Shown: positions 2,752 to 64,000 of the stretch, piece after piece | Layout of the letters: each line of letters opens with the position of its first letter | Numbering within the stretch: the first letter of the stretch is position 1 | DNA from: Alphaproteobacteria bacterium UBA6149 | GTDB taxonomy: Bacteria > Pseudomonadota > Alphaproteobacteria > Rickettsiales > UBA998 | Assembly (NCBI GenBank): GCA_002423155.1 | Contig: DIUV01000044.1 | Coordinates: 62,278 to 126,277, forward strand | Direction of reading: 5' to 3' | DNA: 64,000 bases | Notes under the pieces: generated by a model | What the model was told of the DNA's origin: nothing | The model's input: the letters and a program-made list of their open reading frames with translations, nothing else | Database searches by the model: none | Made by a program: the position numbers and the translations under genes

Positions 2752-2846
2752 AAGAATACTTGCAATTTCCTTAATATTTCTATTAGTTGTGAATAAAATT
2801 ATCCCACACGATATTTTTTGCGAAATAATTTATTTTTATACATACT

Positions 2847-2944
2847 CTCCATTGTCATCCCCGCCTTGTGCGGGGATCTCGGGACACAAAAAAGACCGAA
2901 TTTGTAGCCCTAGATCCCCGCACAAGGCGGGGATGACAATGGAG
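2847..2944. repeat. palindromic element family A, copy A1 (GTCATCCCCGCCTTGTGCGGGGATC arms)
   Basis: 33-bp perfect inverted arms (2847-2879 / 2912-2944). The core is identical to the copy at 54893-54994. Each arm holds a nested CCCCGC-N5-GCGGGG hairpin. Confidence 0.9.
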
Positions 2945-3011
2945 GGTGTTGATAAGAAAAAATAATATTTTGTGGGGTTGAGAAAAATATAAAACTTACA
3001 ATGGATAAAAA

Positions 3012-7477: not shown

Positions 7478-7622
7478 AAGACCTCTGCGTAATGCTACTG
7501 CGCTGGGCTTCTAACGCTCAAGTTATTGAAAAACAATACTCATGTACCTACGTACACTCCGTTTATTTTTCAATAACTTGAGCGCTATAATCCTCAGCGC
7601 AGCGCATTACGCGAGAGGTCTT
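7478..7622. repeat. palindromic element family C, copy C1 (about 145 bp)
   Basis: Imperfect long palindrome AAGACCTCTGCGTAATGCTACTGC...GCGCATTACGCGAGAGGTCTT. A second copy lies at 54666-54809. Confidence 0.85.
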
Positions 7623-7655
7623 ACACTAGTCGTCTTATATACCAAGGAACGCAAT

Positions 7656-23586: not shown

Positions 23587-23621
23587 AAAAAAGCCTCTCG
23601 TTATTAACGGGGGGCTTTTTT
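23587..23621 (+). terminator. intrinsic terminator hairpin; left copy of the 35-bp direct repeat
   Basis: AAAAAAGCCTCTCGTTATTAACGGGGGGCTTTTTT has a 10-bp stem (two G-U pairs on the plus-strand RNA) followed by a U run. An identical copy lies at 25492-25526. Confidence 0.7.
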
Positions 23622-25491: not shown

Positions 25492-25526
25492 AAAAAAGCC
25501 TCTCGTTATTAACGGGGGGCTTTTTT
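25492..25526. terminator. right copy of the 35-bp direct repeat / terminator hairpin
   Basis: Identical to 23587-23621. It overlaps the stop codon of the 497-aa gene (25525-25527). Confidence 0.7.
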
Positions 25527-38713: not shown

Positions 38714-38813
38714 CTATCGTCATGCCGCCGTAGGGCGGTATCCATGCCTATCTGCTAGCTGCACAGCCAGTTGTTTGGCATGGATACCGCCCTGCGGCGG
38801 TATGACAATAGAG
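38714..38813. repeat. palindromic element family B, copy B1 (GTCATGCCGCCGTAGGGCGGTATCCATGCC arms)
   Basis: Inverted arms at 38714-38748 / 38779-38813, inside the ribD-ribE spacer. Further copies lie at 48798-48898 and 62116-62214. Confidence 0.85.
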
Positions 38814-38841
38814 AGTTTTTATGATTAAATCGCGTTACTTT

Positions 38842-39996
38842 TTATTCAATATTCTCTTGATTCTCTTGGTTGTTAATGTTGTGTAGGTTGCGATTTATAT
38901 CATATATCTCTAAACAATCTTCGCCAAGGGAAAGTTTTGCTTGGATTTTCCAACGTGCTCGCTTAGCAAGCGGTAAGTTTGCATCACCAATAAAAACCGG
39001 CAGACCATCCGCCCCCATTAATAATGGCGCACGATACCAATAGATCTGTTGGGCGATATTAGCGTTGATAGCGCTGGAGGTTATTTGGCTGCCCCCTTCG
39101 ATTAATAGGCGGTTTATGCCGCGCTTGGCTAGTTGCTGGGCGATTTCTTTTAGCTCTAAACTAGCTAGCGTGATTATTTCTATGCCGAGATTTTCTAGTT
39201 CGGCGCGTTTATGTTGGTCGGTTGATAAGCTGAAAATTATAGTCGGATAGGTTTTGGCCGTTTGCGCAATCTGGCTGTTTAGGGGGGTGCGTAATTGTGA
39301 ATCCAAAATCACGCGCACGGGTGAGGGCAGACCGTCTAAGCGGCAATTGAGCATGGGGTCGTCGGCTAATATTGTGCCAATACCAGTCAGAATTGCATCA
39401 TGCCGGGAGCGCAGCAAATGCACGTGCCGACGCGCTAATTCCCCAGTTATCCAGTTGCTTTCGCCGGTGCCGGTGGCGATGCGTCCGTCTAAGGAGCTGG
39501 CGATTTTTATATTTATCTCAGGCAGATTTTCCTGCATGCGGCGGAAAAATCCTGTGAGGGTAGGGTAGGCTTCAACACTTAAAAGCGGGGTGATTACTTC
39601 TATGCCTGCTTGTTGGAGCATCGCAGCACCTTTACCATTCACCAACGGGTTGGGGTCGGACAAGGCAAATACTACTTTAGCAACTTTGGCATCAATTAAA
39701 CTTTGTGCACAAGCCGGAGTTTTGCCCAGATGCGCACAAGGTTCTAAACTGACATAAACAGTAGCCTCAGCCGCATTTTCTCCTGCTTGGGCAAGCGCAA
39801 GACTTTCCGCATGCGGACGACCGCCATCGCCCGTGCGTGCGGTGGCAATTATTTGCCCATTTTTGACGATTACACAGCCAACCGAAGGGTTTTCACCTGT
39901 GCGTCCCAAGCCGCTTTGCGCAAGGCGGAGGGCTTGGCGGAGGAAATTGCTGTGCATAAGCTCTTTATTTATGGTTGGTTTATTCATCTCATCCAT
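38842..39996 (-). CDS. ribD: bifunctional riboflavin biosynthesis deaminase/reductase
   Basis: Deaminase HAE...PCAHLGKTPAC and a reductase C-terminal half. It also has a short Asn/Gln/Glu-rich C-terminal tail. Confidence 0.9.
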   Translation of the reverse strand: MDEMNKPTINKELMHSNFLRQALRLAQSGLGRTGENPSVGCVIVKNGQIIATARTGDGGRPHAESLALAQAGENAAEATVYVSLEPCAHLGKTPACAQSLIDAKVAKVVFALSDPNPLVNGKGAAMLQQAGIEVITPLLSVEAYPTLTGFFRRMQENLPEINIKIASSLDGRIATGTGESNWITGELARRHVHLLRSRHDAILTGIGTILADDPMLNCRLDGLPSPVRVILDSQLRTPLNSQIAQTAKTYPTIIFSLSTDQHKRAELENLGIEIITLASLELKEIAQQLAKRGINRLLIEGGSQITSSAINANIAQQIYWYRAPLLMGADGLPVFIGDANLPLAKRARWKIQAKLSLGEDCLEIYDINRNLHNINNQENQENIE

Positions 39997-40142: not shown

Positions 40143-42221
40143 ATGACGCAAATAATACGAGCAGTGAGCAAATTAGTTAGTTTTTTAAAAGTTACTAGCG
40201 AACCTCGCCATAAATTGCGTGCTGCGGGCTTTAGCTTAATTGAATTATCGGTGGTTTTGACCATTATTGGGGTTGTTACAGCGAGCGGATTGTCGATCGC
40301 GACGAGCTCATTGGAGCGTACCAAATACACTTCCAGCAAAGATAAAATGACTGAAGTGCTTGCGGCACTTAGCCGTTTTTATGCGTCTAATTACCGCTTG
40401 CCTTGCCCAGCAGATCCAGCGCTTGCTCCAGGTGCGGGTGGATATGGGCAGGAGATTTATAGCACGAACGGAACTACTGCAGGTTTATGTGATGCGGTTA
40501 CTACTCCTGCAAATACAGCTGCTGTGGGCGGAAGTACTAGACGGCACGTTACTTCTAATGATGCTCTGGGGGTGGCGCGGGATGCTTATGTGCGTCAGGG
40601 CTCATTGCCAACTCGTGCTTTGGGTATTGCAGATAATATGATGTATGATGAATATGGTTATAAATTCACCTATGTAGTGACGGAAGCTTTTACCACGGGA
40701 ACCTCATCTGCCCCAGCAAGTGCAACAGGAGCAATCACGGTTAATGATGGGTTGGGCAATAATCTTACTATTGTTGCCGAAATGGCGGTTATTTCGCACG
40801 GGAAGGACCATAAGGGAGCTTATAATAAAACTGGTACACAAACCAGTACTTGTGGAGCAAGCACTAATTTAGACGTAGAAAATTGTGACACGGAAGTTAA
40901 CGACGTTTGGTTGACCGACGCGCAATATAACGCAGGTACGGTGGCGGCGTCGTATTTCGATGATTTGATTAGATGGCAGGATAAAAATACGGTGATAGGC
41001 ACTTATGCGGCTAGTGGGAGCGGAAGCTCTGGTTCTAGTTCTAGTAGTAGCGGTAATTGCAATTATTATTTATTAACAACTAATAGATATGTTTATTTTC
41101 CTCCTGCTAGCAGTACTGTAACCTATCCCCTAACCGTGCGCATTGTAGCAATCGGTGGAGGTGGAGGAGACAACTACGGTGGCTCAGGTAATATTGTCGC
41201 TGTAACAGATAGCACAAATATTACAAACTCTGGACCATATTATGTAATGATAGGTGCTGGTGGAGTTGCTGCTTCTCAAACAGGTGGAGTTGGTGGAGCT
41301 GGTGGAACTGGTTATAAAAATGGTGGCGCAGGCGGTACGGGGGCTGCTCATGCTAGCAAAGAATTGGGCGGTGGCGGTGGCGGTGGATCTTCAGCCTTTG
41401 GAAGTTATAGTGCAGGCACTATTGGGACTCCGTTCATCGTAGCGGGTGGTGGTGGTGGTGGTGGCGGGTATGGTACTAATTATGAGGATTCCACAGGCGG
41501 TGGCGGTGGCGGTGGTGGAATAACTACAGGCAGTAATGGTGGAAATTATTCTGGCGTTAACGGTGGGAACGGAGGAAATGGAGGGTCTGCAGGTGTTTGG
41601 GCTGGATCAGGTGGTGGCGGTGGCGGTGGTGGTACAGGTAAACTAGGTACTGGTGGTACTGGTGGTAATGGTAATGGCGGCGGTGGCGGCGGCGGCGGTG
41701 GTGATGCTTGTTGTACTAACGGCGGTGGCGGCGGCGGCGGTGGTGGTTACGGTGGTGCTGGTGGAGTTTATTCTGGCGGTGGCGGTGGGTTTAATGGAGG
41801 AATTGGTGGTTCTCCTGTGACAGGAAGAGGAGGAGCAGGCGGCGGCGGCGGTGGGAATGGTACTGCTTGGGACGGCGGCGGTGGTGCTGGTGGAAATACC
41901 ACCACTGGCGGCGGTGGTGGAACATATAACGTCCCAGGTGGTATTATTGGCGTTGCTCCTGCTGGAGCTGGAAATGGGGGTAAGGGTGGTGGTGCTGGTG
42001 CGTCAGCTATTAATACCCCTGTGGCCACTTATGTAACTGGCAACTATAATGTAGGAGGTATAGATTTTAAATGTGCATCTTTTGTTGATAGCGGAATTAA
42101 AGGTTTTAGTATTACTCCTAAAGATGCGACTGCTACTACTGCCATAGGTAGAGCCTACTCTAGTGTTGGTGGTGGGTGGAGTGCGTCCTCTGGGGCTGTT
42201 TACATCGAATGGGATCAATAA
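40143..42221 (+). CDS. type IV pilin-like (prepilin N-terminal) protein with a giant glycine-rich C-terminal domain
   Basis: Prepilin motif G/FSLIELSVVLTIIGVV (Gly-1, Phe+1, Glu+5), a Ser/Gly linker, then about 290 aa dominated by Gly runs interrupted by short beta-like strands. The true start may be internal, because the leader from 40143 is 29 aa. Confidence 0.6.
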   Translation: MTQIIRAVSKLVSFLKVTSEPRHKLRAAGFSLIELSVVLTIIGVVTASGLSIATSSLERTKYTSSKDKMTEVLAALSRFYASNYRLPCPADPALAPGAGGYGQEIYSTNGTTAGLCDAVTTPANTAAVGGSTRRHVTSNDALGVARDAYVRQGSLPTRALGIADNMMYDEYGYKFTYVVTEAFTTGTSSAPASATGAITVNDGLGNNLTIVAEMAVISHGKDHKGAYNKTGTQTSTCGASTNLDVENCDTEVNDVWLTDAQYNAGTVAASYFDDLIRWQDKNTVIGTYAASGSGSSGSSSSSSGNCNYYLLTTNRYVYFPPASSTVTYPLTVRIVAIGGGGGDNYGGSGNIVAVTDSTNITNSGPYYVMIGAGGVAASQTGGVGGAGGTGYKNGGAGGTGAAHASKELGGGGGGGSSAFGSYSAGTIGTPFIVAGGGGGGGGYGTNYEDSTGGGGGGGGITTGSNGGNYSGVNGGNGGNGGSAGVWAGSGGGGGGGGTGKLGTGGTGGNGNGGGGGGGGGDACCTNGGGGGGGGGYGGAGGVYSGGGGGFNGGIGGSPVTGRGGAGGGGGGNGTAWDGGGGAGGNTTTGGGGGTYNVPGGIIGVAPAGAGNGGKGGGAGASAINTPVATYVTGNYNVGGIDFKCASFVDSGIKGFSITPKDATATTAIGRAYSSVGGGWSASSGAVYIEWDQ

Positions 42222-43492: not shown

Positions 43493-43827
43493 TGTTTTCT
43501 CCCCCGCTTACGTATTTTGGGTTGCTTTAACAATTCATCTAGCGTGAGCGGGGTGGTGGGAGGTGGCGTGGTGAAAAGCAATTCAAATTCTTTTTCTGCG
43601 TGCAAGGCGATGGCGATTTTTAGTAGATGCGCCAAAGAAATTTTACCAGTATTTTCAAATAGTTTGATGCTGCCTAAGCTAACCCCAGATTTTTGCGCGA
43701 GGGCGGTTTGGGTAAGGTTCAGCACCAGCCGTTGCGCTTTAGCACGCCCAGAAATTTCTTGCAATAGCTCTAAGGGTGTTTTTATCATAACAGCTAATAT
43801 ATTATCCGCTAATGAGCAAAAAGTCAA
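43489..43827 (-). CDS. hipB: HipB-like XRE-family HTH antitoxin
   Basis: HTH LNLTQTALAQKSGVSLGSIKLFENTG; 112 aa; translationally coupled to hipA. Confidence 0.75.
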   Translation of the reverse strand: MTFCSLADNILAVMIKTPLELLQEISGRAKAQRLVLNLTQTALAQKSGVSLGSIKLFENTGKISLAHLLKIAIALHAEKEFELLFTTPPPTTPLTLDELLKQPKIRKRGRKQ

Positions 43828-43854
43828 TTAGTGGATAATATATTAGCTGTAATA

Positions 43855-45799: not shown

Positions 45800-45991
45800 T
45801 AGACTTGCCTAATTTCTCGTTGTATTGATTGCGCTTCAGTCGTTTCTTTCTGATAAAGCCCTGAGCGTTAAAAAAACATGGCTTAATGTCATGTTTTTAG
45901 GGAGGGGGCAGCGTAGCGGTGCTACGTGAGGACTCTGAAGAAGGAAAAACGACACAGATGCATTGCTACAATGAGAAATTAGGCAAGTCTA
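45800..45991. repeat. 192-bp MITE-like element with 25-bp terminal inverted repeats
   Basis: TAGACTTGCCTAATTTCTCGTTGTA (45800-45824) matches TACAATGAGAAATTAGGCAAGTCTA (45967-45991) at 24/25 positions. It has a GC-rich hairpin core. Confidence 0.8.
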
Positions 45992-48688: not shown

Positions 48689-48730
48689 TTACTTGCTCTC
48701 CATCGAGAATTATATTTTCAGTTTATTCCC

Positions 48731-48962
48731 CTACACGACAGTACTATTAATAACAGTATTACATATTGATATATAATGTATCTTTATAACAAATATATCC
48801 GCCGTCATACCGCTGTAGAGCGGTATCCATGCCTATCAACTAGCTGCAAGCCAATGGTTTGGCATGGATACCGTCCTGCGACGGTATGACAATGGAGAGT
48901 TTGTATGTATAATACATTGTTATTTAATATATAAATTCCTTGTTAATAGTGCTATCGTACAG
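48731..48962. repeat. composite palindromic element: outer CTACACGACAGTACTATTAA inverted repeats enclosing family B copy B2 (48798-48898)
   Basis: Outer arms lie at 48731-48750 and 48943-48962. The inner part is a GTCATACCGC...GGTATGAC palindrome. It sits in the flgK-flgL spacer. Confidence 0.8.
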
Positions 48963-49027
48963 AGTGCAGTTTATTATAGATAATTAACACTAATAGTCGA
49001 GTAATTACTACACAACTAGCGCCAATA

Positions 49028-52833: not shown

Positions 52834-53985
52834 CTATCTGGTTTGTATATCGGCTTGCAATGCGCCTGCCGCTTTGATGGTTTGTAATATAGTTATCATA
52901 TCCCGAGGACCCACGCCCAATGCATTTAATCCGGCGACTAAATCTTTTAAAGTGGCGGAATTTTTTAACACTGCCATACGTGCATCGCTATTTTCATTTA
53001 CACTAACATTGGTGCTGGGAACCACTACTGTCTGCGCACCTTCGGGAGCAAAAGCATTTGGTTGAGAAACTTTGGGAGCTTCATCAACTTTTACTACCAG
53101 ATTGCCTTGGGCTACAGCCACCGTATCAATCCGCACATTTTCGCCCATAACAATTGTGCCCGATGCTTCATCAATAACAATCCGCGCAATTTGATCGGTC
53201 TGCACATCCAAAGTTTCAATATCGGCGAGCATGGTTGCGACATCCCCTTTATAAGCAGGGTTGGCGTGAACCATTACCGTTCCTGGGTCAATCATGTTGG
53301 CAGTTCCCGGACCTACACGCCCATTAATAGCCTCGGCAATATGGTTGGCGGTAGATAAATCCGGGTTGCGTAAAGCTAGTTTTACAGATTTTAGACCATT
53401 TAGATCAAAGTCAATTTCCCGTTCTACAACGGCTCCATTCGCTACTGCTCCACTGGTGGGCACGCCTTTGGTAATTGAAGAGCCCGATTGACCACTCGCC
53501 TCAAACCCACCCAGCGCAATCGCGCCTTGAGCTACGGCATAAACTTCCCCATCCGCGCCATATAAAGGAGTGGCAAGCAAAGTTCCGCCTTGCAGGCTTT
53601 TTGCATCTCCCATGGCGCTTACAGACACATCAATATTGCTCCCCGTGCGGGAAAAACCGGGCAATTTAGCGGTGACCGTTACGGCGGCGACGTTACGAGT
53701 TTTAAGGCTGGTGCCACGAGTATTCACCCCTTGGCGTTCCAAAAAAGCAATCAGGCTTTGTTCAGTGAAGGCACTGTTTTGTAAGCGATCTCCCGTGCCG
53801 TTTAAGCCCACCACCAAACCATAACCCAGCAACATATTGTCGCGGATACCTTCTACTGCTACGATGTCTTTTATACGTGCCGCTTGTGCTGAAGCGCAAA
53901 ACACCAACGCCATCACAATCATCATGAATGAGGCGGAAATTCTTGCCATTAACAGGCGCACAGAGGAAGAAAAAATATTTAACAC
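52834..53985 (-). CDS. flgI: flagellar P-ring protein
   Basis: Signal peptide followed by RIKDI..VEG.R.N.L.GYGLVVGLNGTGD; C-terminus ALGV.P.D.I.ILQ.IK.AGAL.A.I. Confidence 0.95.
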   Translation of the reverse strand: MLNIFSSSVRLLMARISASFMMIVMALVFCASAQAARIKDIVAVEGIRDNMLLGYGLVVGLNGTGDRLQNSAFTEQSLIAFLERQGVNTRGTSLKTRNVAAVTVTAKLPGFSRTGSNIDVSVSAMGDAKSLQGGTLLATPLYGADGEVYAVAQGAIALGGFEASGQSGSSITKGVPTSGAVANGAVVEREIDFDLNGLKSVKLALRNPDLSTANHIAEAINGRVGPGTANMIDPGTVMVHANPAYKGDVATMLADIETLDVQTDQIARIVIDEASGTIVMGENVRIDTVAVAQGNLVVKVDEAPKVSQPNAFAPEGAQTVVVPSTNVSVNENSDARMAVLKNSATLKDLVAGLNALGVGPRDMITILQTIKAAGALQADIQTR

Positions 53986-54027
53986 AGCGCAACATACCAG
54001 AATTATTTTTATATCACCCTATCTATA

Positions 54028-54043
54028 TGCGATTTTCGTGCCA
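54028..54043 (-). promoter_or_regulatory. candidate sigma-54 promoter for flgI
   Basis: Minus strand reads TGGCACGAAAATCGCA, with GG and GC at the consensus -24/-12 spacing (TGGCAC-N5-TTGC). It lies about 45 nt upstream of the flgI ATG. Confidence 0.4.
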
Positions 54044-54167
54044 AACCATCCAATGAATTGCTATCAATGGGTTAGAAGCCCTGATTAATAAATAGTAGGC
54101 ATAATTTTCCCCACGTGAAAAATTACCCACAGAAATCGTTTCTCAGCAACCTGCTAAGCTTGCAGGA

Positions 54168-54614
54168 GTGTTTTTATTGGCTTATATAAGGGGAATGAAA
54201 ATTGAAACCAGCTTTTCTATCCCTCTAATTTCTAAAGCACGCAGGCGGAGCAAAACGTCGAGCGTAGGTTCTGGTTTTGCCGAGGTTTTAGACGAGGTAT
54301 CGCTGGTGGATGCACCTACGGAGATTGCTCACACTGCTCCCGTAAATGCGTTAGATGCAATTTTAGCATTGCAGGAAGTTTCCGACGAAGAAGGGCAGCG
54401 CAAACGGGCGATAAAATCAGGACATTCAGCCTTGGATGAGCTGGAAAAATTACGTGTGGCGATGTTATTTGGTGCGGTTCCCAAGGAAAGATTATTGGCA
54501 ATCAAACAACAAATGGTAAATTTAAAGACGCGCACCCACGATCCCGAATTGCATATTATTTTAGAAGAAATAGAAATAAGAGCCGCGGTGGAATTAGCAA
54601 AATATGGGTTTTAA
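54168..54614 (+). CDS. fliX: flagellar assembly regulator FliX
   Basis: About 140 aa, divergent from flgI as in Caulobacter, with a conserved central/C-terminal helical region. The start is ambiguous: GTG 54168, TTG 54177 (AGGAG 8 nt upstream) or ATG 54195. Confidence 0.65.
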   Translation: MFLLAYIRGMKIETSFSIPLISKARRRSKTSSVGSGFAEVLDEVSLVDAPTEIAHTAPVNALDAILALQEVSDEEGQRKRAIKSGHSALDELEKLRVAMLFGAVPKERLLAIKQQMVNLKTRTHDPELHIILEEIEIRAAVELAKYGF

Positions 54615-54618
54615 CAAG

Positions 54619-55208
54619 CTACACGACAGTACTATTAACAGGGCATTTATATGTTGAAATATAATAAGACCTCTGCATAATGCTACTGCTCTGGACTTCT
54701 AAGTGCTAACTCATTGAAAAATAATACTCATGTACTGATGTACACTCCGTTTATTTTTCAATGAGTTAGCACTTATAAGCCTCAGCGCAGCGCATTATGC
54801 AGAGGTCTTATAATACAAAAGTTCGCTCTCTCCGTCGTCATTCCCGTGCAGACGCACTACTGTCCAAGTAAATTTATTTATATATATCAGCACTATCCGT
54901 TGTTATCCCCGCCTTGTGCGGGGATCTCGGGACACAAAAAAGACCGAATTTGTAGCCCTAGATCCCCGCACAAGGCGGGGATGACAACGGATAGTTGTTT
55001 TAATACAGGTGCATATATAATATAAACCTTTTTAATTTTAATTGGACAGTAGTGCGTGCAGACGGGAATCTCTTTCACCCCAAACGAAGCACTAACAAGC
55101 GGAAAAAGAGATTCTTAGTCGCTCGGGAATGACGACGAAGAGAGCGATTTTGGAAAATAAATGATTCCAATTCAATGGTTTAATAATATTAACAGTACTG
55201 TTGTGTAG
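54619..55208. repeat. 590-bp nest of palindromic elements (outer D-type IRs; family C copy C2 at 54666-54809; GTCATTCCCG-type element split by family A copy A2 at 54893-54994)
   Basis: Outer arms: CTACACGACAGTACTATTAA (54619-54638) and TTAACAGTACTGTTGTGTAG (55189-55208). Inner matches to copies elsewhere in the window were read directly. Confidence 0.8.
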
Positions 55209-55227
55209 CGTGGGGTTTTAATCTCTT

Positions 55228-55551
55228 TTATTGCTGGTTTTCAATAGTCAGCTCATTCTTACTTTCGCCCGTGCAGGTGTCGTATGCAATAGTATGAATT
55301 TTTTTTCCGTCTTTGGAGATGGTGGTCAGACGAAAAATATTGTTTTCGCTGCGTGCTTCAAGAATTTTATCGCCTAAATTAGTGAGAACAACTCGTTTTT
55401 CATTACAAACAGAATGCTTGCGTGCGGAGCTAACTTTAGTGGCAACTCCATAAAATAACAAAACCAGACCGCCCATTAACAAGGCTCCCAGCGAGATTAC
55501 CATTAGTTTTAAGCCCGTATGTTTTTCTTGTTGCATGATTTTCCGTGCCAA
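55228..55551 (-). CDS. hypothetical membrane-anchored protein
   Basis: 107 aa with a single N-terminal TM helix. Confidence 0.4.
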   Translation of the reverse strand: MARKIMQQEKHTGLKLMVISLGALLMGGLVLLFYGVATKVSSARKHSVCNEKRVVLTNLGDKILEARSENNIFRLTTISKDGKKIHTIAYDTCTGESKNELTIENQQ

Positions 55552-55603
55552 TTTGATATTTTAAGTTATAACTAGCTAATATTTTTCTATTTAACTATCA
55601 AAA

Positions 55604-56593
55604 ATGGATACAGAAAACGAATATAATTTTATTGTCAGCGAAGAAAAGGCAGGAACGCGGCTAGATGTGTTCTTAACTGCTGGTGGTTTATCACGTAGTC
55701 GCGCAAAGGCATTGCTTACCGAAGGGCAGGTAACGCTTGCCCAAAAATCGGGAGTAGGACAAATAGTTAGTGATGCTTCACGCAAGGTACGTGTGGGAGA
55801 GCATTATCAGATTATTGTCCCACAATTGCGTGAAGCAAGTATGGAGGCGCAAGATATCCCGCTTAACATCGTGTTTGAAGATGAGCACATGCTAGTGATT
55901 AATAAAGCCGCGGGAATGACGGTACACCCTGCCGCAGGTAGCCCAGATGGTACGCTGGTAAATGCTTTATTAGCTCATTGTGGAGGTTCACTTTCAGGAA
56001 TTGGCGGAGTGGCACGCCCAGGGATTGTACATCGTTTGGATAAGGATACTAGCGGTTTGATGGTGGTGGCAAAGCATGACGCCGCACATCACGCGCTGGC
56101 GGCGCAGCTGGCGGATCGTAGTTTGAAGCGGGTTTATAATGCATTTTGCTGGGGAGTGCCTGCCTTAGATAGTGGTTCGGTGGATGGGGCGATTGGTCGT
56201 TCGCCCAAGAATCGCAAAAAAATGGCGATTCTTAAGCAAGGCGGGCGCGAGGCGCTTACCTATTATAAGGTTTTAGATAAATATCATGAGAATTTTGCCG
56301 CCAAGATAGAATGTCGCCTACAAACAGGGCGCACGCATCAGATTCGCGTGCATCTTACCTTTTTGGGGCATGCACTGATTGGTGATCAACTTTATGGGGG
56401 CGGCTCACGCTTGGTCGGCAAAACTGCCGCTGGTTTGCAAGCGCCGGTGCGTGATTTGCTGCGTGATTTTTCCCGGCAAGCACTACATGCAGTGCAAATT
56501 GCGTTTATTCACCCTGCCAGTGGGGAGCGGATGGAATTTGCTTGTGAGCTGCCGGATGATTTATTGGCATTACAATCTGCCCTTGAAATATAG
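55604..56593 (+). CDS. rluD: RluA/RluD-family 23S rRNA pseudouridine synthase
   Basis: S4 domain N-terminus and the catalytic HRLDKDTSGLMVVAK motif. Confidence 0.88.
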   Translation: MDTENEYNFIVSEEKAGTRLDVFLTAGGLSRSRAKALLTEGQVTLAQKSGVGQIVSDASRKVRVGEHYQIIVPQLREASMEAQDIPLNIVFEDEHMLVINKAAGMTVHPAAGSPDGTLVNALLAHCGGSLSGIGGVARPGIVHRLDKDTSGLMVVAKHDAAHHALAAQLADRSLKRVYNAFCWGVPALDSGSVDGAIGRSPKNRKKMAILKQGGREALTYYKVLDKYHENFAAKIECRLQTGRTHQIRVHLTFLGHALIGDQLYGGGSRLVGKTAAGLQAPVRDLLRDFSRQALHAVQIAFIHPASGERMEFACELPDDLLALQSALEI

Positions 56594-56647
56594 CTGGTTT
56601 TCGCTTATAATAATCGCGGTAGTTTAATCATAATTTGGTTTTAAAAA

Positions 56648-57511
56648 ATGGTTACGAAAAATCTTCCTGTTATTTCACAGGAAAGTGATTTTAGACAATA
56701 TCTCGCAGAAATACGTAAATTCCCCGTTTTAGATGCGGATGAAGAATATATGCTTGCCAAAAGCTGGGCAGAGCATGGCGATTATGATGCTGCGCATAAA
56801 TTAGTTACTAGTCATTTGCGCTTGGTAGTAAAAATCGCGGCGAGTTTTCGTGGTTATGGTCTACCTTTCACCGAATTAGTTTCGGAAGGAAATATTGGGC
56901 TTATGCAGGCGGTAAAACGCTTTGATGCTGAGCGGGGCTTTCGTTTATCCACTTATGCTATGTGGTGGGTGCGAGCGGCAATCCAGGAATATGTCTTGCG
57001 TTCCTGGTCTTTGGTAAAAATGGGCACGAGTGCAGCACAAAAACGCTTGTTTTTTAACTTGCGGAGTTTAAAACGCAATTTGCAAGCGGTTGAAGCTGGG
57101 CAATTGCGTCCGGAAACCATTACGGAAATTGCGCGTATATTAGACGTATCCGAGTCAGAAGTGGTGGATATGGATCAACGCATGTCAGCAACTGATCAGC
57201 GCTTGGATGCGCCAGTGGGCGGTTCGGACGGCGAGACTAATTGGGGTGATTTGTTACCCTCGCAAGAAATATCACAAGAAGAAGATTTCGCCGACAAACA
57301 AGAACAAAAAATTCGTCATGGTTTGTTGAAACGTGCCTTGGCAAAACTAAATCCGCGCGAGCGAGATATTATCCAACGCCGCCGCTTGGACGAGGTGCCA
57401 ACTACTTTGGAAGATTTAAGCAAAGAACATAATATTTCTCGCGAACGCGTGCGCCAAATTGAGGTACGCGCAATGGAAAAATTGACAGAGATGGTACAAG
57501 AAGCGGCTTAG
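56648..57511 (+). CDS. rpoH: RNA polymerase sigma-32 (heat shock)
   Basis: Regions 2-4 present. The RpoH box-like QKRLFFNLRSLKR and 287-aa length fit. Confidence 0.9.
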   Translation: MVTKNLPVISQESDFRQYLAEIRKFPVLDADEEYMLAKSWAEHGDYDAAHKLVTSHLRLVVKIAASFRGYGLPFTELVSEGNIGLMQAVKRFDAERGFRLSTYAMWWVRAAIQEYVLRSWSLVKMGTSAAQKRLFFNLRSLKRNLQAVEAGQLRPETITEIARILDVSESEVVDMDQRMSATDQRLDAPVGGSDGETNWGDLLPSQEISQEEDFADKQEQKIRHGLLKRALAKLNPRERDIIQRRRLDEVPTTLEDLSKEHNISRERVRQIEVRAMEKLTEMVQEAA

Positions 57512-57638
57512 GGTTGTTTTGTTGCTTGCGTATTGAGCTTATCCATTAATATTGTGTAACATCCTTCAATATTTTGTATGATTTCATTATTCCAAAAGCG
57601 AATGATACGAAATTTTTTTGCTTTTATATAAACAGTCC

Positions 57639-59621
57639 TTATTGCACCAAAGACAATACTTTGGCAAAAACTTCTTGAGCGTCTAATTCGGTAGTATCAA
57701 TTTTTATGGCATCTTCTGCGGGAACTAAAGGGGCAATTGCGCGGGTGCGGTCTCGCTCATCGCGTTCGGATAATTCGTGGAGTACGGAGTCATATACTAC
57801 TTCAATTCCTTCGCCTTGTAATTCCCGGTGGCGGCGTTGTGCGCGGGTTTCTAGCGAGGCATTGATAAATATTTTTAGATCGGCATCAGGGCAGACTACG
57901 GTGCCAATGTCGCGCCCGTCGAGCACGGCTCCTTCGCTGCGTTCGGCGAATTTGCGTTGATATTCCAACAAAGCATCACGTACTTTTGGCATGGCAGACA
58001 CTATGGACGCCGCCCGTCCGATGCGTTCTTGGCGTAGGCGTGGATTGCTCAAGTCATTTTCGTCAATGGTTTGCGCCGCGTGGAGGGCGGCTTCTTTATC
58101 ATTGGGGTCTTGGTTTGCATAAACCAATTTTAAGCCAACGGCGCGATATAGGCTTCCCGTATCTAAATAACTCATGCCGAAATGTTCGGCTAAGCGGCGA
58201 GCTAAAGTTCCTTTTCCTGAAGCGGCAGGGCCGTCCACCGCGATTATTTTTGGACGTTTTTGTTGGGTAGATATTGCCGCACGAATATCCGCTCCCAAAC
58301 TGTTCATTAATTCGATAAAATCAGGAAAGCTGGTGCTGATGGCAGTGGCATCATCAATAATTATGGGGTTTTCGGCAACCATACCTAACACAGCAAAACT
58401 CATGGCGATGCGGTGGTCAAAATGGGTGGTGACTAGTCCGCCGCCGCGGATTTTTCCGTTAGTGCCTTTTACGGTGAGATTGTCGCCCGTAATGATATTT
58501 TCTACCCCACAGATTGATAATCCTGCGCTGATAGCGTTTAGGCGGTCACTTTCTTTGACGCGTAATTCCTGCAAGCCTTGCATTAATGTATCTCCATTGG
58601 CAAAGGCGGCGGCGATGGCTAAAATGGGATATTCGTCAATCATGCTGGGCGCGCGCTCCGGCGGAACAATAATGCCGTGTAACTGGCTGGCGCGCACGCG
58701 TAAATCTGCCACTGGTTCGCCACCTGCTTCGCGGAGGTTTAAAAACTCAATTTGTCCGCCCATTTCCTGCAAACATTTATAAAGTCCGATGCGCGTTTCA
58801 TTAATGCCAACATTTTCTAATATTATATCCGCGTGGGGGATGATGAGGGCGGCAACCGCTAAAAATGCGGCGGATGAAGGGTCAGTCGGGACTTGGATAT
58901 GACGTTCGGCGAAGCTAATCTGGGGCTGTCCGCGTAGGGAAATTTCTCTTTGTCCTGCGTCATTTTCCTGCGTAGTTATTTCTACGCCGAGGAATTTTAG
59001 CATCCGCTCGGTGTGGTCACGCGTGGCTTCGGGCTCGATTACTTTGGTGATACCGGGAGTATTTAACCCAGCCAATAAAATGGCGGATTTAACTTGCGCG
59101 GAGGCAACCGGCAATGTGTAGGTAATGGGAAGGGGGTTCTTGGCACCTTGTAGGGCGAGGGGTAAAAATTTCTCTTCCCGTGCCATGAACTCGGCGCCCA
59201 TTTGGTAAAGCGGCTGCATTACGCGTCCCATGGGGCGGCTGCACAGGCTGGCATCGCCCGTAAACACACTTACAAAAGGATAAGCGGCTAATAACCCCAT
59301 CATTAAACGCGCACCTGTGCCTGCATTGCCCATATCCAGCACTTGGGTGGGCTGATGCAGACCCGATATACCCACGCCTTGTACCTGCCATTTGCCTTTG
59401 CCAGAATTTTCGATGGTTACGCCGAGTGCGCGTAATGCTTTGGCGGTTGCCAGTACGTCTTCACCCTCTAATAACCCCTCTATATAAGTAGTGCCGAGTG
59501 CGAGGGAAGAAAGCATCAAAGCGCGGTGGGAAATAGATTTATCGCCAGCTACTTTAGCTTTTCCTTGAAAATGTGCGGCTTTATGCGAAATTATAGAAAA
59601 TTTGGTATTTGTGTGCGTCAT
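57639..59621 (-). CDS. aroA-cmk: bifunctional 3-phosphoshikimate 1-carboxyvinyltransferase / cytidylate kinase fusion
   Basis: An EPSP synthase body (GDKSISHR, LGNAGTGARL) is joined in frame through the linker RAAISTQQKRPK to Cmk (IIAVDGPAASGKGT...YLDTGSLYRA). Confidence 0.9.
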   Translation of the reverse strand: MTHTNTKFSIISHKAAHFQGKAKVAGDKSISHRALMLSSLALGTTYIEGLLEGEDVLATAKALRALGVTIENSGKGKWQVQGVGISGLHQPTQVLDMGNAGTGARLMMGLLAAYPFVSVFTGDASLCSRPMGRVMQPLYQMGAEFMAREEKFLPLALQGAKNPLPITYTLPVASAQVKSAILLAGLNTPGITKVIEPEATRDHTERMLKFLGVEITTQENDAGQREISLRGQPQISFAERHIQVPTDPSSAAFLAVAALIIPHADIILENVGINETRIGLYKCLQEMGGQIEFLNLREAGGEPVADLRVRASQLHGIIVPPERAPSMIDEYPILAIAAAFANGDTLMQGLQELRVKESDRLNAISAGLSICGVENIITGDNLTVKGTNGKIRGGGLVTTHFDHRIAMSFAVLGMVAENPIIIDDATAISTSFPDFIELMNSLGADIRAAISTQQKRPKIIAVDGPAASGKGTLARRLAEHFGMSYLDTGSLYRAVGLKLVYANQDPNDKEAALHAAQTIDENDLSNPRLRQERIGRAASIVSAMPKVRDALLEYQRKFAERSEGAVLDGRDIGTVVCPDADLKIFINASLETRAQRRHRELQGEGIEVVYDSVLHELSERDERDRTRAIAPLVPAEDAIKIDTTELDAQEVFAKVLSLVQ

Positions 59622-59745
59622 AACGAATTATTCATCATTTTATTTATATAATGGTTTTATAACGGGAGAAATACATAGAGTCCACTTGACAAATGTATTT
59701 TTCTGCCCTCAAGAATAGATTATAATTTAAAGGAAGTGAAAAATA

Positions 59746-60228
59746 ATGGCATTAGGTGAAAAACGCAACTGTCCTGCATGTGCGGCAAAATTTTATGATT
59801 TGGAAAAAAACCCAGCAATTTGCCCAAAATGTGCCCATTCTTTTGACCCCGAAGCACCAGCAAAAGCCAAATTGCCGCGTAAGGCAAAGCGTGTGGAAGA
59901 ATTAATTGCACAAAATCAAGATAAGGCAGATGCTTTGTTGCAAAAGAAAAAACTGATTCAAAATATTGATGAAGTGGGCGATATTGATTTGAGCGAATTT
60001 GATGATGCAGAAAAAGTCGCTATCACTGATTCACTGGATGATTTTGAAGAAATTGGCGATATGGAAGTAGATGCAATTGGCGAATTAGAAGATCGCAGCG
60101 TTGATGATGACCGCATGAGCAGCGATGATGTGGACGAAGAATTAGACATCGAAGAAATCGACGGAATGGTGAGCTTAATTGATAAAGTAGAAGATGATGA
60201 AGACGAGGACGATGAGGACGATAAATAG
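59746..60228 (+). CDS. FYDLN_acid (TIGR02300-like) zinc-ribbon protein with an acidic tail
   Basis: CPACAAKFYDLEKNPAICPKC N-terminus and an Asp/Glu-rich C-terminus. Confidence 0.7.
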   Translation: MALGEKRNCPACAAKFYDLEKNPAICPKCAHSFDPEAPAKAKLPRKAKRVEELIAQNQDKADALLQKKKLIQNIDEVGDIDLSEFDDAEKVAITDSLDDFEEIGDMEVDAIGELEDRSVDDDRMSSDDVDEELDIEEIDGMVSLIDKVEDDEDEDDEDDK

Positions 60229-60288
60229 TTTTTGTCTTGCTTTTTTGTAGGGTAATTTCACCAATTGTTAGTCTTGTTTTTTATCAGC

Positions 60289-60540
60289 CTAGACGATACT
60301 ACTATTAGAACTATTGTCAAAAGCGGTGTTATATGTGGCGTTATATGCTGATATATAATGCAATTTAGGTGAATGTATCCGTCGTCATCCCCGCTCTTTA
60401 AGCGGGGATCTTGAGCGACAAATTCAGTCCGAATTCGTGTCTTGAGATCCCCGCTTAAAGAGCGGGGATGACAACCGAGAGAGCAGAAAAATCATCATTA
60501 TTCAATGCATTGCAGCCTTATTAACCTTACTGTCGTGTAG
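60289..60540. repeat. composite palindromic element: outer D-type IRs enclosing family A variant A3 (60384-60472)
   Basis: Outer arms: CTAGACGATACTACTATTAG (60289-60308) and TTAACCTTACTGTCGTGTAG (60521-60540). Inner part: GTCATCCCCGCTCTTTAAGCGGGGATC / GATCCCCGCTTAAAGAGCGGGGATGAC. Confidence 0.75.
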
Positions 60541-60557
60541 GGTAGGTTAATTGTAAA

Positions 60558-60770
60558 TTAATTGTTCTTCGCTTGGTTCATTAGAAAATTTAGTTTTTTT
60601 ACCGCTAGTTGGCTGAGATAATTTTTAGAATAGGCGGTGCTGCCGACGATGGAGGCTTCCTGTCCTGTTTGTAAATTAATCGCGGTTACTTTTACTGCTT
60701 TACCATAAGCAATAAACTCGATAGCAATATCTTTACTAAGGTGAGAGTCAGTGGGTGGGGATGGGGGCAT
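60558..60770 (-). CDS. small conserved-looking protein (70 aa)
   Basis: The IEFIAYGKAVKVTAINLQTGQEASIVG pattern resembles a small alphaproteobacterial family I recall, but I cannot verify this. It overlaps the tlyC 3' end by 23 nt. Confidence 0.4.
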   Translation of the reverse strand: MPPSPPTDSHLSKDIAIEFIAYGKAVKVTAINLQTGQEASIVGSTAYSKNYLSQLAVKKLNFLMNQAKNN

Positions 60771-62028
60771 CTTCCTGTCTTTGCATGCGAATTTTTAATA
60801 TCTGGTTAGATTTTTTCTCTAACACTTCAAAATGAAACTCGTGAAAAGAAAAAATTGCCCCTACTTCTGGGATGCTGCGTGCTTCATGAATTAATAATCC
60901 TGCAATGGTGGTGGCATTATCATCGGGCAAATGCCAGTCTTGGTGGCGATTTAAATCGCGGATTGCCACCATGCCGCCCACTAACCAACCTTGCTCACCT
61001 ACAGGCAAAATATCTGCGCTGCGGATAAAATCATGCTCATCATCAATATCGCCGACAATTTCTTCTAATATATCTTCCAAAGTGATAATGCCGAGGAAAG
61101 AACCATATTCATTAACCACATGGGCAAAATGGCGGCGGCGCGAACGAAAGCCCAATAATTGCTGGCGTAAATTAGTGGTTTCCGGCACAAACCATGGTTC
61201 ACTCAAAATACTGATAATCATATTATGCGTAATCTGCTCAATTCCATAAGCGGAGATTAATTTCATCAAGTCCTTGCTGTGCAGCAAACCAATAATATTA
61301 TCAGGATTTTCGCGCCAAAAGGGAATGCGGCTATGCGTGGAATAAATTACCAGATTAATAATTTCACGCGCCGGTAAATCTATGTCAATGGTTTCTACCT
61401 GTTTGCGGTGTACCATTACCGAGCCAACTTCTACATCGTTTAAGTCTAAAATACTGCCCAACATATCGCGATCTTGTTTGCGCATTTCGCCAGTACTATG
61501 ATGTAGTTCAATCGTTCCGCGAATAACTTCTGCGGCGGAAAGTAACGATTTCCCATCGGAAATATCTAATTTAAATAAACGGGAAACAGCATGGATAACC
61601 CACTGAATACTAAAATTCATGGGCGTCAATACTCGCACCAGAACCACCATCATAGGTGCTACCACCAGCGCACAACGCTCCGAATTTTGCAAAGCATAAG
61701 TTTTTGGCAGTACTTCACCAAAAATAAACAACAACACGGAAAGGATTGCCGTAGAAAAGAAAATAGCCTCGTTACCAAAATATTGAATCGCCGTACTGGT
61801 TCCCACTGCCGTAGCGGCGGTTAACACCAAAGTATTGCCTAATAAAACTGTGCCAATCAGGTGCTCTTTATGCTGGCGCAACCACGCAATTTTTTGCGCA
61901 CGGCGATTGCCCATCATCACTAAACTATGAATACGTGGGCGAGATATAGTGGTCAATGCGGTTTCTGAACCAGAAAAAAACGCTGAACCAAGAATAAGTA
62001 AAAAAATCAGTACGCCGCTAAAAATCAT
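60748..62028 (-). CDS. tlyC: CNNM/HlyC/CorC-family transporter (DUF21-CBS-CorC_HlyC)
   Basis: The N-terminal DUF21 TM region has a GEVLPK motif, followed by a tandem CBS region and a C-terminal CorC_HlyC domain. Confidence 0.85.
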   Translation of the reverse strand: MIFSGVLIFLLILGSAFFSGSETALTTISRPRIHSLVMMGNRRAQKIAWLRQHKEHLIGTVLLGNTLVLTAATAVGTSTAIQYFGNEAIFFSTAILSVLLFIFGEVLPKTYALQNSERCALVVAPMMVVLVRVLTPMNFSIQWVIHAVSRLFKLDISDGKSLLSAAEVIRGTIELHHSTGEMRKQDRDMLGSILDLNDVEVGSVMVHRKQVETIDIDLPAREIINLVIYSTHSRIPFWRENPDNIIGLLHSKDLMKLISAYGIEQITHNMIISILSEPWFVPETTNLRQQLLGFRSRRRHFAHVVNEYGSFLGIITLEDILEEIVGDIDDEHDFIRSADILPVGEQGWLVGGMVAIRDLNRHQDWHLPDDNATTIAGLLIHEARSIPEVGAIFSFHEFHFEVLEKKSNQILKIRMQRQEDAPIPTH

Positions 62029-62115
62029 TTTTATATAAAATCAAGTTGATGGTTCAATTGTTGTTTTATGCAACATAATTTTGTATTATTTAATAGCATG
62101 TTAACTCGATGATGT

Positions 62116-62214
62116 CGGTTGTCATGCCGCCGTAGGGCGGCATCCATGTTTATCAATTAGCTTATGAGCCAACGGGCTAGCATGGATACCGCCCTGCGGC
62201 GGTATGACAACGGA
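62116..62214. repeat. palindromic element family B, copy B3
   Basis: GTCATGCCGCCGTAGGGCGGCATCCATG...CATGGATACCGCCCTGCGGCGGTATGAC. Confidence 0.85.
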
Positions 62215-62308
62215 TGGTTTTTTGTAATAAAATATTTTTTATTTAATGTTATGACGATTGCGTAGAATAGCCCGATTATAACAATCTTTCATTTTTTTTC
62301 TATGTTTT

Positions 62309-64000
62309 TTATTCGCCACTATGCAAGCGCACTTCTTCCAACTCCAACCAGCGCAATTCTGCCGCATCCAACTCTTTCACACTTTCGGCAAAACGCTTAG
62401 TGGATTTATCAAAAACTACTGGGTTGCTGGTATAAAGTTCTGGGTCTGCCAATAGAAGTTTTAACTGCGCTTGTTCTTCTTCCAATTTAGCCATGCGCTC
62501 AGGCAGTTTTTCTAATTCATGCTTTAATTTAAACGACATCTTAGTCGAAGAATTTTCTGTAAAAGCGCGTTCAGCATTGTTTATTTTGCTTAACCCTTCG
62601 GGCTTGGGTTGTTTTTTCTTCGCTTCCAGATAATCACTATAGCCGCCAATATAGCCTTCTATTTGTGCATTGCCCTCAAATGCTAGAACTTTGCTAACTG
62701 TACGGTCAAGAAAATCGCGATCATGGCTGACTAAAATCAGCGTTCCTGCATAATCGGCGAGAATTTCTTGCAGCATATCCAGCGTATCCATATCCAAATC
62801 ATTGGTGGGCTCGTCGAGAATTAAAACATTGCCGGGATTGGCGAGAACTTTGGCTAACATTAAGCGGTTCTGCTGCCCACCTGAAAGAGTACTCACTTGG
62901 TTACGTGCCACTTTTGGATCAAACAAGAAGTCCTTTAAGTAACCACACACATGGCGCTGCCGCTGCTCGGCACCGCTGCCCAAAGTAACATGGTCACCAC
63001 CATCACTACATAAAGTTTGCCAAAGGCTCTTTTTGGGGTCTAATTGCACGCGGTTTTGATCAAAATAGGCAATTTCCATGGTTTTTCCGCGCGATACTCG
63101 ACCCGAATCCGCCTCGATTTCGCCAATCAATAATTTTAAAAAAGTAGATTTACCCGAACCATTTTGCCCCAATATACCAATTCTATCCCCACGCATAATC
63201 CGCAGGTTAAAATCTTTCAATATAGGTTTATCGCCGTAGGATTTGTTCACCATCTTAAATTCAGTAACAATTTTAGAAGCTTGGGTGGGCGTTAACGGGT
63301 CTAGCTCAATCGTGCGCATGGTTTGATTGAACGAAGCTTTATCAGCGCGTAGTTTATCGCGCAATTTATGCAGCTCACTCAAACGCCGCTGGTTACGCTT
63401 GCGCCGTCCGGTAACTCCGCCTTGCGTCCAATCTACTTCCGCTTCGAGTTTTTTTTGCATATTTTGAATTTCGCGCGCTTCTTGCTCCATTATTTGCTCT
63501 GCCCAAGCATCAAAATTCTGATACCCACCCGAAAAACTCCGCACTGCGCCGCGGTCAATCCATAAAACTTTACGCGAAATGGCGTTTAAAAATGCGCGGT
63601 CATGGCTCACGCAGACTAACGCACCGCGATAAGCTTTCAGGTAGGTTTCCAGCCATTCAATCGTGCCTAAATCCAAATGGTTGGTTGGCTCATCTAGCAA
63701 TAATATATCTGGCTCTTCTACTAAGGCTCGCGCCAAAGCCGCCCGCCGTAACTGCCCACCCGAAAGCGTTTTCATTAAAGCCGCATCTTCTAACCCCAAG
63801 GGGGCAATTACCATATCCGCCAGATGCTCGCGTGATTCACCCAAATCTTCCAAACCAATATGCACACTGGGTTTTAATCCATCTACCACAAATTGCTTCA
63901 CGCTAGATTCGGGCGGATAAACCACTTTTTGCGCCAGATACCCAATGGTAATGCCGGGCAAAACAAAGCGCTTACCTGCATCCAGCTCTAATTCCTCTAA
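62309..64000 (-). CDS. uup: ABC-F family ATPase (Uup-like), N-terminus beyond the window end
   Basis: Two ABC signature/Walker B sets (LSGGQLRR..LLLDEPTNHLD; GQNGSGKST; LSGGQQNR..LILDEPTNDLD) and a C-terminal coiled coil. The reading frame stays open to position 64000. Confidence 0.85.
   Translation of the reverse strand, partial: LEELELDAGKRFVLPGITIGYLAQKVVYPPESSVKQFVVDGLKPSVHIGLEDLGESREHLADMVIAPLGLEDAALMKTLSGGQLRRAALARALVEEPDILLLDEPTNHLDLGTIEWLETYLKAYRGALVCVSHDRAFLNAISRKVLWIDRGAVRSFSGGYQNFDAWAEQIMEQEAREIQNMQKKLEAEVDWTQGGVTGRRKRNQRRLSELHKLRDKLRADKASFNQTMRTIELDPLTPTQASKIVTEFKMVNKSYGDKPILKDFNLRIMRGDRIGILGQNGSGKSTFLKLLIGEIEADSGRVSRGKTMEIAYFDQNRVQLDPKKSLWQTLCSDGGDHVTLGSGAEQRQRHVCGYLKDFLFDPKVARNQVSTLSGGQQNRLMLAKVLANPGNVLILDEPTNDLDMDTLDMLQEILADYAGTLILVSHDRDFLDRTVSKVLAFEGNAQIEGYIGGYSDYLEAKKKQPKPEGLSKINNAERAFTENSSTKMSFKLKHELEKLPERMAKLEEEQAQLKLLLADPELYTSNPVVFDKSTKRFAESVKELDAAELRWLELEEVRLHSGE

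Follow-up and report, generated by a model that had tools for sequence, protein, structure and literature searches.

Bacterial MITEs (miniature transposable elements with inverted repeats) such as Nezha, Chunjie, Correia/CREE and RUP are small and non-coding, bear terminal inverted repeats (TIRs), are flanked by a target duplication of fixed length, occur in many intergenic copies and can form a hairpin over the whole element (PMC3184786). Repetitive extragenic palindromic (REP) sequences are short and GC-rich, and their inverted doublets, the REPINs, form a long hairpin, occur in about 100-200 copies and insert into one another (PMC3116915, PMC2817692, PMC3333891; insertion of REPINs into REPINs, PMC3116915). 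In pneumococci, the small repeats BOX, RUP and SPRITE are found clustered and inserted into one another (PMC3049150). The stretch analysed here, referred to as the window, comprises 64,000 nt of contig DIUV01000044.1 from Alphaproteobacteria bacterium UBA6149, and the locus of interest is the spacer downstream of its fliX gene, which ends at a small convergent open reading frame (ORF). We read this spacer, at a probability of about 0.8, as a nest of three non-autonomous MITE-like elements, O(D), C and E(A), where the first letter stands for the type of TIR and the letter in brackets for the core; C is a palindrome without such a core. In common with the MITEs described to date, the elements of this organism are small and dispersed, with TIRs, a duplication of constant length (perfect in seven cases and 8/9 in one more) and, for C and E, paralogous empty sites.

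For comparison, about 130 kb of DNA from the same organism was examined, comprising the window, its extensions L003 and L135, and the contigs L126, L127 and L128. The latter three were reached by a search with a spurious ORF lying over the A core, which returned three predicted "proteins" on contigs of the same samples. The parts of the nest are listed in Table 1. The outer inverted repeats, put at 20 nt in the initial annotation of the spacer, are real and extend to 24 nt at 88% identity. Likewise present are the C palindrome (54660-54815; its two arms, 24 nt at 96% and 29 nt at 97%), the termini of an element beginning with GTCGTCATTCCCG (54823-54849 / 55121-55147, 27 nt at 93%), the inner pair GCACTACTGTCC / GGACAGTAGTGC (54854-54865 / 55044-55055) and the A palindrome; the TIRs of E(A) agree over 14 nt at 100%. 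Two identities had been set too high: C matches the copy at 7478-7622 at 86% gapped and 82% ungapped, not about 90%, and the A core, thought to be identical to 2847-2944, shares two identical small hairpins with it but differs in the loop between them. Over 121 nt, the A core and its flanks match 2827-2943 at 92%.

The four layers proposed at first reduce to three mobile units on two levels. The outer inverted repeats and the GTCGTCATTCCCG element, which is the D core, form a single unit, O(D), because junctions from O arm to D core recur at L127 1419-1520 and L128 85-222; C lies in the left arm of O(D), beside D, and the loop of D's left small hairpin harbours E(A). Compared with other O elements, O(D) has a left arm that is 81-89% identical, and the right part of its D core is 86% identical to L128 89-174. 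The units range from 142 to 598 nt, and any ORFs inside them are short and spurious.

Direct repeats at the boundaries (GGGTTTTAA, TATAATA, GTGCAGAC and, at a sister copy, CAGTTTATT), overlooked in the initial annotation, delimit these units. A perfect 9-bp GGGTTTTAA flanks the whole block; when the block and one copy are removed, 6 nt are left between the fliX stop and the stop of the convergent ORF. C lies between two copies of TATAATA. For E(A), the flanking repeat is GTGCAGAC, or the 10-nt CGTGCAGACG when the TIR is taken without its end bases, giving a duplication of 8-10 bp centred on the hairpin loop, and removal of the element with one duplication copy restores D's left small hairpin as ATTCCCGTGCAGACGGGAAT. 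Perfect 9-bp duplications accompany seven TIR elements of the organism: O(D) of the nest, the O(B) sister in the window, O(A) on L128 (CTTTTGTCA), G(A) and H(B) on L126 (ATGCTAAAT and CTCACCACC, respectively), G(D) on L135 (GCTTTTATT) and E(F) on L127 (GCACAAGGC). The duplication of O(A) on L127 matches in 8/9 positions. By comparison, flanks matched at random in 9/9 positions 4 times per 200000 trials (2e-5 per pair).

Chance can be excluded for the repeats of the nest, since the outer inverted-repeat pattern matches 4 times in the window versus 0.00 expected, and the 598 nt of 54615-55212 fold as single-stranded DNA at -187.6 kcal/mol versus -58.5 +/- 4.9 for shuffled sequences (z -26). The recurrence of the outer-repeat arrangement at 48731-48962 and 60289-60540, reported previously, was borne out. 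The motifs proved to be multi-copy, rather than unique to these loci, and their boundaries discrete.

The integrity of the assembly was checked against independent contigs. Short-read assemblies break within the nest, with contig ends at 54693, 54750, 54829 and 55056, which we attribute to the nested repeats. A contig of 2871 nt covers 53800-54693, from fliX through the left TIR into C; the C interior (54700-54809) is covered by a contig; a 57-nt contig at single-copy depth (10-13), found in four of four runs, covers 54782-54838 and links C, at its right end, with the left end of D; and an ENA MEGAHIT contig is 100% identical over 54829-64000. Because each junction is backed by an independent contig or a second assembly, the nest is not an assembly artefact.

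Empty sites for the two inner units were found in sister copies. Contigs from three metagenomes (X1 and, from landfill relatives, X5 and X6) lack exactly 149 nt, equal to C together with one TATAATA, 7 nt being common to both sides of the joint, and a near-identical sister O(D) arm without C reads ...TTGAAA/TATAATACAAAAG, i.e. GAAA/TATAATA/CAAAAG. D hairpins without E(A) read CGTGCAGACG/GGAATCTCT, which is the predicted empty site, and a contig of a landfill relative in X5 skips from 54844 to 55066. Whether such elements had inserted into each other or formed a modular composite had been left as alternatives in the initial annotation, and each holds for a part: nested insertion for C and E(A), because both have discrete ends, flanking direct repeats and sister copies lacking them, and modularity for the pairing of TIRs with cores.

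Table 1. Features of the fliX-downstream nest, related copies elsewhere and flanking genes (window positions unless a contig is named)
Feature	Position	Strand	Details
flgI	52834-53985	-	flanking gene
fliX	54168-54614	+	stop codon TAA at 54612-54614
Left target-duplication copy	54606-54614		GGGTTTTAA; includes the fliX stop codon TAA
O(D) element	54615-55212		MITE-like; 24-nt TIRs; GC-rich double-hairpin D core central
O left TIR	54615-54638	+	CAAGCTACACGACAGTACTATTAA
O(D) left arm	54639-54666	+	AT-rich; ends in TATAATA (54660-54666), the C insertion site
C element	54667-54808		142-nt palindrome; ends AGACCTCTGCATAATGC / GCATTATGCAGAGGTCT
Second TATAATA	54809-54815		beside C
O left-arm end and D core left part	54816-54853	+	CAAAAGT; TCGCTCTCTCCGTCGTCAT, then 5' half and loop of small hairpin ATTCCCGTGCAGAC
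E(A) left duplication copy	54846-54853		GTGCAGAC; within D left part
E(A) element	54854-55055		202 nt; TIRs GCACTACTGTCCAA at 54854-54867 / 55042-55055; AT-rich arms
A core within E(A)	54892-54995		two hairpins ATCCCCGC-CTTGT-GCGGGGAT, inverted orientation; 47-nt arms at 91%
D core right part	55056-55147	+	GTGCAGAC copy (55056-55063), GGGAAT 3' hairpin half, spacer, second hairpin region, end ATGACGACGAAGAGAGCGA
O(D) right arm	55148-55188	+	AT-rich
O right TIR	55189-55212	-	TTAACAGTACTGTTGTGTAGCGTG
Right target-duplication copy	55213-55221		GGGTTTTAA; then 6 nt (55222-55227) to the stop codon of ORF 55228-55551
Small ORF	55228-55551	-	without family; convergent with fliX
TIR type O			CAnnCTACACGACAGTACTATTAA
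TIR type E			GCACTACTGTCCAA
TIR type G			CACACTACCCGACACTTTTTTG
TIR type H			CAGGGCAATTTCACCAATCGTTAA
Sister O(B)	48728-48966		B core 48804-48890; with duplications 48719-48975 (perfect 9-bp CAGTTTATT, 48719-48727 / 48967-48975)
Sister O(A)	60285-60544		A core 60378-60478
Degenerate H-type TIR	60248-60271		TAGGGTAATTTCACCAATTGTTAG; 13 nt upstream of sister O(A)
A core with AT-rich arms	2801-2975		core 2825-2966; degenerate G/O-like ends CCCACACGATATTTTTTG / ...AATATTTTGTGGGG
Second, older C copy	7478-7622		standalone
B core with O-type end	38714-38876		core 38714-38811; degenerate O-type right end 38863-38876
B core	62120-62231		decayed arms
Nest	L127 9946-10497		O(A) with E(F) inside the A core's right hairpin
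Nest	L128 3979-4420		H(B) with O(A) at the B core edge
Nests	L128 1-222; L127 1190-1520		further O(D) copies, E-type element in D hairpin
E-type site 1	nest		D left hairpin
E-type site 2	L128 1-84		E(A), opposite orientation
E-type site 3	L127 1419		cargo F, D hairpin
E-type site 4	L127 10094-10418		A hairpin
E-type site 5			A hairpin, contig only

A census of the organism's DNA gave one shared architecture for the TIR elements, namely TIR, AT-rich arm, GC-rich double-hairpin core, arm and TIR, with four core types (A, B, D and F) and four TIR types. O ends occur with A, B and D cores, G ends with A and D, E ends with A and F, and H ends with B, so that TIRs with their arms and the cores are paired modularly. 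The left arms of O(B) in the window and O(A) on L127 are 92% identical up to GTCAT, beyond which the cores diverge fully; G(D) and G(A), whose cores are unrelated, have arms that are 91% identical; and the G elements have an inner arm, TTATATATCAGCAC, in common with E(A). Every core has the ends CTCTCCGTCGTCAT...ATGACGACGGAGAG, at which arms and cores were likely exchanged by recombination, deletion inside older nests being the other candidate route. The hairpin itself is conserved: a perfect 8-bp stem is present in 25 of 26 half-cores, and at five of its eight positions at least two types of Watson-Crick pair occur, i.e. pairing has been kept through compensatory changes.

From these observations, a history of the locus can be proposed. 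Before insertion, about 6 nt would have separated the fliX stop from the convergent small ORF. An O-type element with 24-nt TIRs starting with CA and a D core would then have landed at the fliX stop, duplicating 9 bp (GGGTTTTAA). TIRs together with a constant 9-bp target duplication point to a DDE-type transposase, and such an enzyme, acting in trans by a cut-and-paste or copy-and-paste route, would account for the duplication. Subsequently, C would have entered the TATAATA of the O(D) left arm, and an E-type element with an A core the loop of D's left 8-bp hairpin (ATTCCCGT-GCAG-ACGGGAAT), duplicating 8-10 bp. A parent insertion sequence (IS) would have ends matching CAnnCTACACGACAGTAC, GCACTACTGTCC, CACACTACCCGACAC or CAGGGCAATTTCACCAATCGTTAA and make 9-bp duplications. 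Assignment of the transposase to a family from these ends was rejected; the CAGGG start of H-type ends combined with a 9-bp duplication may hint at ISAs1, which serves as a lead only. An IS200/IS605-like partner had also been proposed in the initial annotation. Members of that family have subterminal hairpins and are not known to bear TIRs or to make a target duplication, and thus misfit elements with TIRs and 9-bp duplications; such a partner is imaginable only for the hairpin cores.

The position of E(A) in a hairpin loop is not unique to the nest. In at least five cases (sites 1 to 5 in Table 1), involving both D and A hairpins, E-type ends were found to lie in a core-hairpin loop, and E(A) at L128 1-84, in opposite orientation, is either an independent event or an inversion. 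E-type elements prefer loops that other elements carry as cargo, so that nests build up readily. A bolder possibility, which we consider less likely than not, is that E-type elements are aimed by their transposase at REP-like hairpin loops, and that, as these loops travel as cargo of other elements, the system feeds itself. Under this scheme, each transposition would seed new targets and nests would grow; deletions within them ("nest and trim") would give rise to the mosaic of four TIR by four core types, and the covarying hairpin would be a cis-acting module for targeting or synapsis rather than a passenger.

Several alternative explanations were weighed against that of nested MITE-like elements. 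That the nest is a chimeric path through repeats is exceedingly improbable; the internal ends of short-read contigs are what such an artefact would leave, but all junctions are covered by contigs at single-copy depth or by a second assembly, and the perfect GGGTTTTAA on both sides fits a single insertion. It is also very unlikely that the whole 598-nt block is one modular composite, put together by recombination or gene conversion of modules without nested transposition. The free combination of TIR and core types, the arms that are 91-92% identical around unrelated cores and the inner arm common to E(A) and G elements all speak for exchange of modules, whereas C and E(A) have discrete ends, flanking repeats and the predicted empty sites in sister copies; moreover, this D hairpin is occupied by E(A) in two copies, with opposite orientations, and by E(F) in a third. 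As the sole explanation, the composite is refuted by the contigs with empty sites.

Movement of the cores in their own right is harder to dismiss, although we consider it unlikely. Here, the REPIN-like A, B and D cores would have been moved by a RAYT-type Y1 transposase into the centres of AT-rich MITEs, making five units and two systems. Each core, of about 100 nt, combines two GC-rich hairpins of 20-22 nt as an inverted doublet, as do the REPINs of PMC3116915; the cores are 5-10 times more abundant than any single arm type, show no flanking duplication, retain stem pairing through compensatory changes and also exist with only decayed arms (38714 and 62120). On the other hand, no RAYT gene was found in the 130 kb, the conserved 5' flank is CGTCGTC as opposed to the GTAG of Stenotrophomonas SMAG REPs (PMC3184786), and no core-less O, E, G or H elements were seen among the loci or contig joints; with the core always central, strict targeting of the centre would be needed. 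Retention of the block for a host function, with its mobility in the past, is more doubtful still. Its very stable fold, its position between two 3' ends and the ability of REP-type hairpins to stabilise or attenuate transcripts (PMC3184786) would suit a bidirectional terminator, mRNA-stabilising hairpins or a structured RNA. However, no Rfam family scored over threshold, with only generic microRNA-hairpin matches below it; terminator-like sites were not enriched in a promoter and terminator scan; the same families occur on the promoter side of genes and in other contexts (e.g. 48728, upstream of a flagellin gene); and the near-identical C copies suggest recent spread.

Some observations weigh against nested transposition of MITE-like elements as set out above. 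No transposase is encoded in the window according to Pfam gene tables, as noted in the initial annotation, and across the 130 kb no autonomous element or parent IS with matching ends, transposase or Y1 (RAYT) gene was found. An orthologous empty fliX site was not seen, the other assemblies being of the same strain (99.98-100% identical to the window in a search for presence/absence differences) and the contigs of relatives ending before the spacer. C is flanked by TATAATA in the nest, but its copy at 7478 and the mini-C copies described below show TA-like ends only. The O element at 60285 has no duplication; together with the degenerate H-type TIR upstream of it, 60248-60544 is probably the deletion remnant of a nest like H(B[O(A)]) at L128 3979-4420, which would explain the missing duplication. 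Two E-type flanks lie outside core hairpins, so loop targeting is a preference, not a rule. Finally, the copy numbers given below presuppose a single genome at about 10x as the source of all depth.

How far the nest departs from the described systems can now be stated. From known MITEs it differs in the 9-bp duplication, in four TIR types sharing one core superfamily and in the lack of any sequence match (Rfam and plasmids; for the O end, GTDB). Correia and RUP elements make TA duplications, and the Correia/CREE TIR is 26 bp long; the nest elements, with 9-bp duplications and unrelated ends, do not belong there. The A, B and D cores are inverted doublets in the manner of REPINs, with 8-bp-stem hairpins in about 140-200 copy equivalents. 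Unlike REPs and REPINs, these doublets lie inside TIR elements with 9-bp duplications, no RAYT accompanies them, and their conserved flank is CGTCGTC(AT), with GTAG in some B loops only. Like the BIMEs of enterobacteria and the NIMEs of Neisseria, they combine short GC-rich hairpins with AT-richer modules in many arrangements. The Neisseria dRS3 repeat is a 20-bp ATTCCC-N8-GGGAAT (PMC1797815), a consensus that the D hairpins ATTCCCGTGCAGACGGGAAT and ATTCCCGTCTGCACGGGAAT fit and the A and B hairpins do not; as with dRS3, the D hairpin is the target of a mobile element. Since only 12 bases are fixed and one of several hairpin variants fits, the match is probably a coincidence, and the nest differs from NIMEs in having no alternating arrays of hairpin and spacer, but discrete units with TIRs and duplications in an alphaproteobacterial host.

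Insertion specific to small extragenic palindromes is known for IS1397/ISKpn1, ISPpu9/10, ISPa11 and ISRm19/22 (PMC1525189; PMC3184786). Unlike these ISs, the E-type elements are non-autonomous, make an 8-10-bp duplication centred on the loop and have as targets the cargo of other MITEs. IS1397 makes a duplication of 3-4 bp, and members of the IS110 family are not known to make any. Modular or mosaic non-autonomous elements are found among the Tn3-derived TIMEs (PMC4133298); neither these nor the BOX/RUP/SPRITE clusters are related to the nest in family, host, ends or duplication length. The elements described here accordingly represent new families, from a new lineage, of the already documented phenomenon of nested MITEs with REP-like hairpins, and no new class of system is opened; the nest is a tidy example of known behaviour. 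What it offers is a clean and well-bounded case of small non-coding mobile elements stacking, by which a gene spacer of about 6 nt has been expanded to about 600 nt. Two points are less usual: a non-autonomous element that makes an 8-10-bp duplication prefers hairpin loops, and four end types mix freely with four core types. Both provide testable leads on target choice and on the origin of mosaic MITEs.

Copy numbers were estimated relative to unique sequence, which has a depth of about 10 in the source metagenome. Depth jumps from about 10 to about 130 at the left O TIR of the nest; at the corresponding boundary of the copy at 48728 it rises from 12 to 204. The O left arm reaches a depth of 130-250 (13-25x), C about 65-125 (6-12x), D about 140-370 (12-35x), the E(A) arm about 380-425 (about 40x), the B hairpins about 1400-1500 (about 140x) and the A core about 2285 (about 200x); 13 O-type ends were counted in about 117 kb. 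The C interior retains a depth of 65-76 at an identity of at least 99%, and it is these near-identical copies that suggest recent spread. The families of the nest region also occur in landfill relatives, the left arm of E(A) being the sole part found absent there.

Database searches outside this organism gave little. The O-type end had no match in GTDB representative genomes and two in JGI metagenome contigs (one unrelated sequence), attributed to chance. A chimeric query of 2157 aa, built from spurious ORFs across the modules as a whole, had no match in a protein search, and BLAST of the nest and the H-type end against plasmids gave nothing meaningful. The small hairpin of A, GATCCCCGC-N4-8-GCGGGGATGAC, gave more than 120 matches in GTDB from diverse GC-rich genomes, none of them BLAST-related to family A, and was set aside as too generic a motif. 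A CRISPR array was rejected for lack of regular spacers.

Further copies and derivatives were seen beyond the nest. Mini-C forms of 33-36 nt (L126 9890-9925; L135 11660-11696) keep only both C ends and are internal-deletion derivatives of C. The F cargo of E-type elements (L127 1190-1420 and 10108-10404) measures about 300 nt and contains a long inverted repeat, CCCCTCTCCCTCTGGGAGAGG...; one truncated copy directly abuts the end of a flagellin gene. At two unrelated loci (L126 10203-10226; L135 at about 15081-15100), a B core has the hairpin CCCCGCCCCAAGGGGCGGGG just upstream of it, and this hairpin may be another repeat module. At the older C copy, the longest start codon of a TPR-methyltransferase ORF (7542-9797) lies inside the element; in other assemblies, some gene calls begin 38 codons further downstream (713 aa on L130 and L135, against 751 aa on L129). 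The last 35 nt or so of a ribD-like ORF (38842-39996, minus strand) overlap the degenerate O-type right end, TTAATGTTGTGTAG, beside the B core, and the element may provide this gene's C-terminus and stop codon.

The nest is also flanked by rluD, rpoH and an aroA-cmk fusion, and the GC content of the host is about 43%. Four runs of a single hydrocarbon metagenome from 2013 contain 97% of the window DNA, and relatives occur in landfill metagenomes. The source samples are JGI 3300001605 and 3300012990, ENA ERZ27315062 and runs SRR942940 and SRR5323133. RpoH has one relative at 96% and the rest are at or below 69%, the named ones including metagenome-assembled genomes labelled Rickettsiales, Dongiaceae and Stellaceae; this makes the host an isolated, uncultured alphaproteobacterium. 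Many toxin-antitoxin pairs (HicAB, ParE, HipA, PIN, Gp49/HTH) lie among housekeeping genes in the window, L003 and L126-L128. An ORF at 40143-42221 (692 aa) contains long coding repeats of the glycine-rich GGX kind and, at its N-terminus, a prepilin methylation motif. Two further palindromic structures, 45800-45991 (a 25-nt inverted repeat at 96% around 142 nt) and 43787-43853 (27-nt arms), show no duplication. Identical 35-nt hairpins, AAAAAAGCCTCTCGTTATTAACGGGGGGCTTTTTT, occur at 23587-23621 and 25492-25526 with one gene between them, and runs of A and T on either side give them the look of bidirectional terminators.

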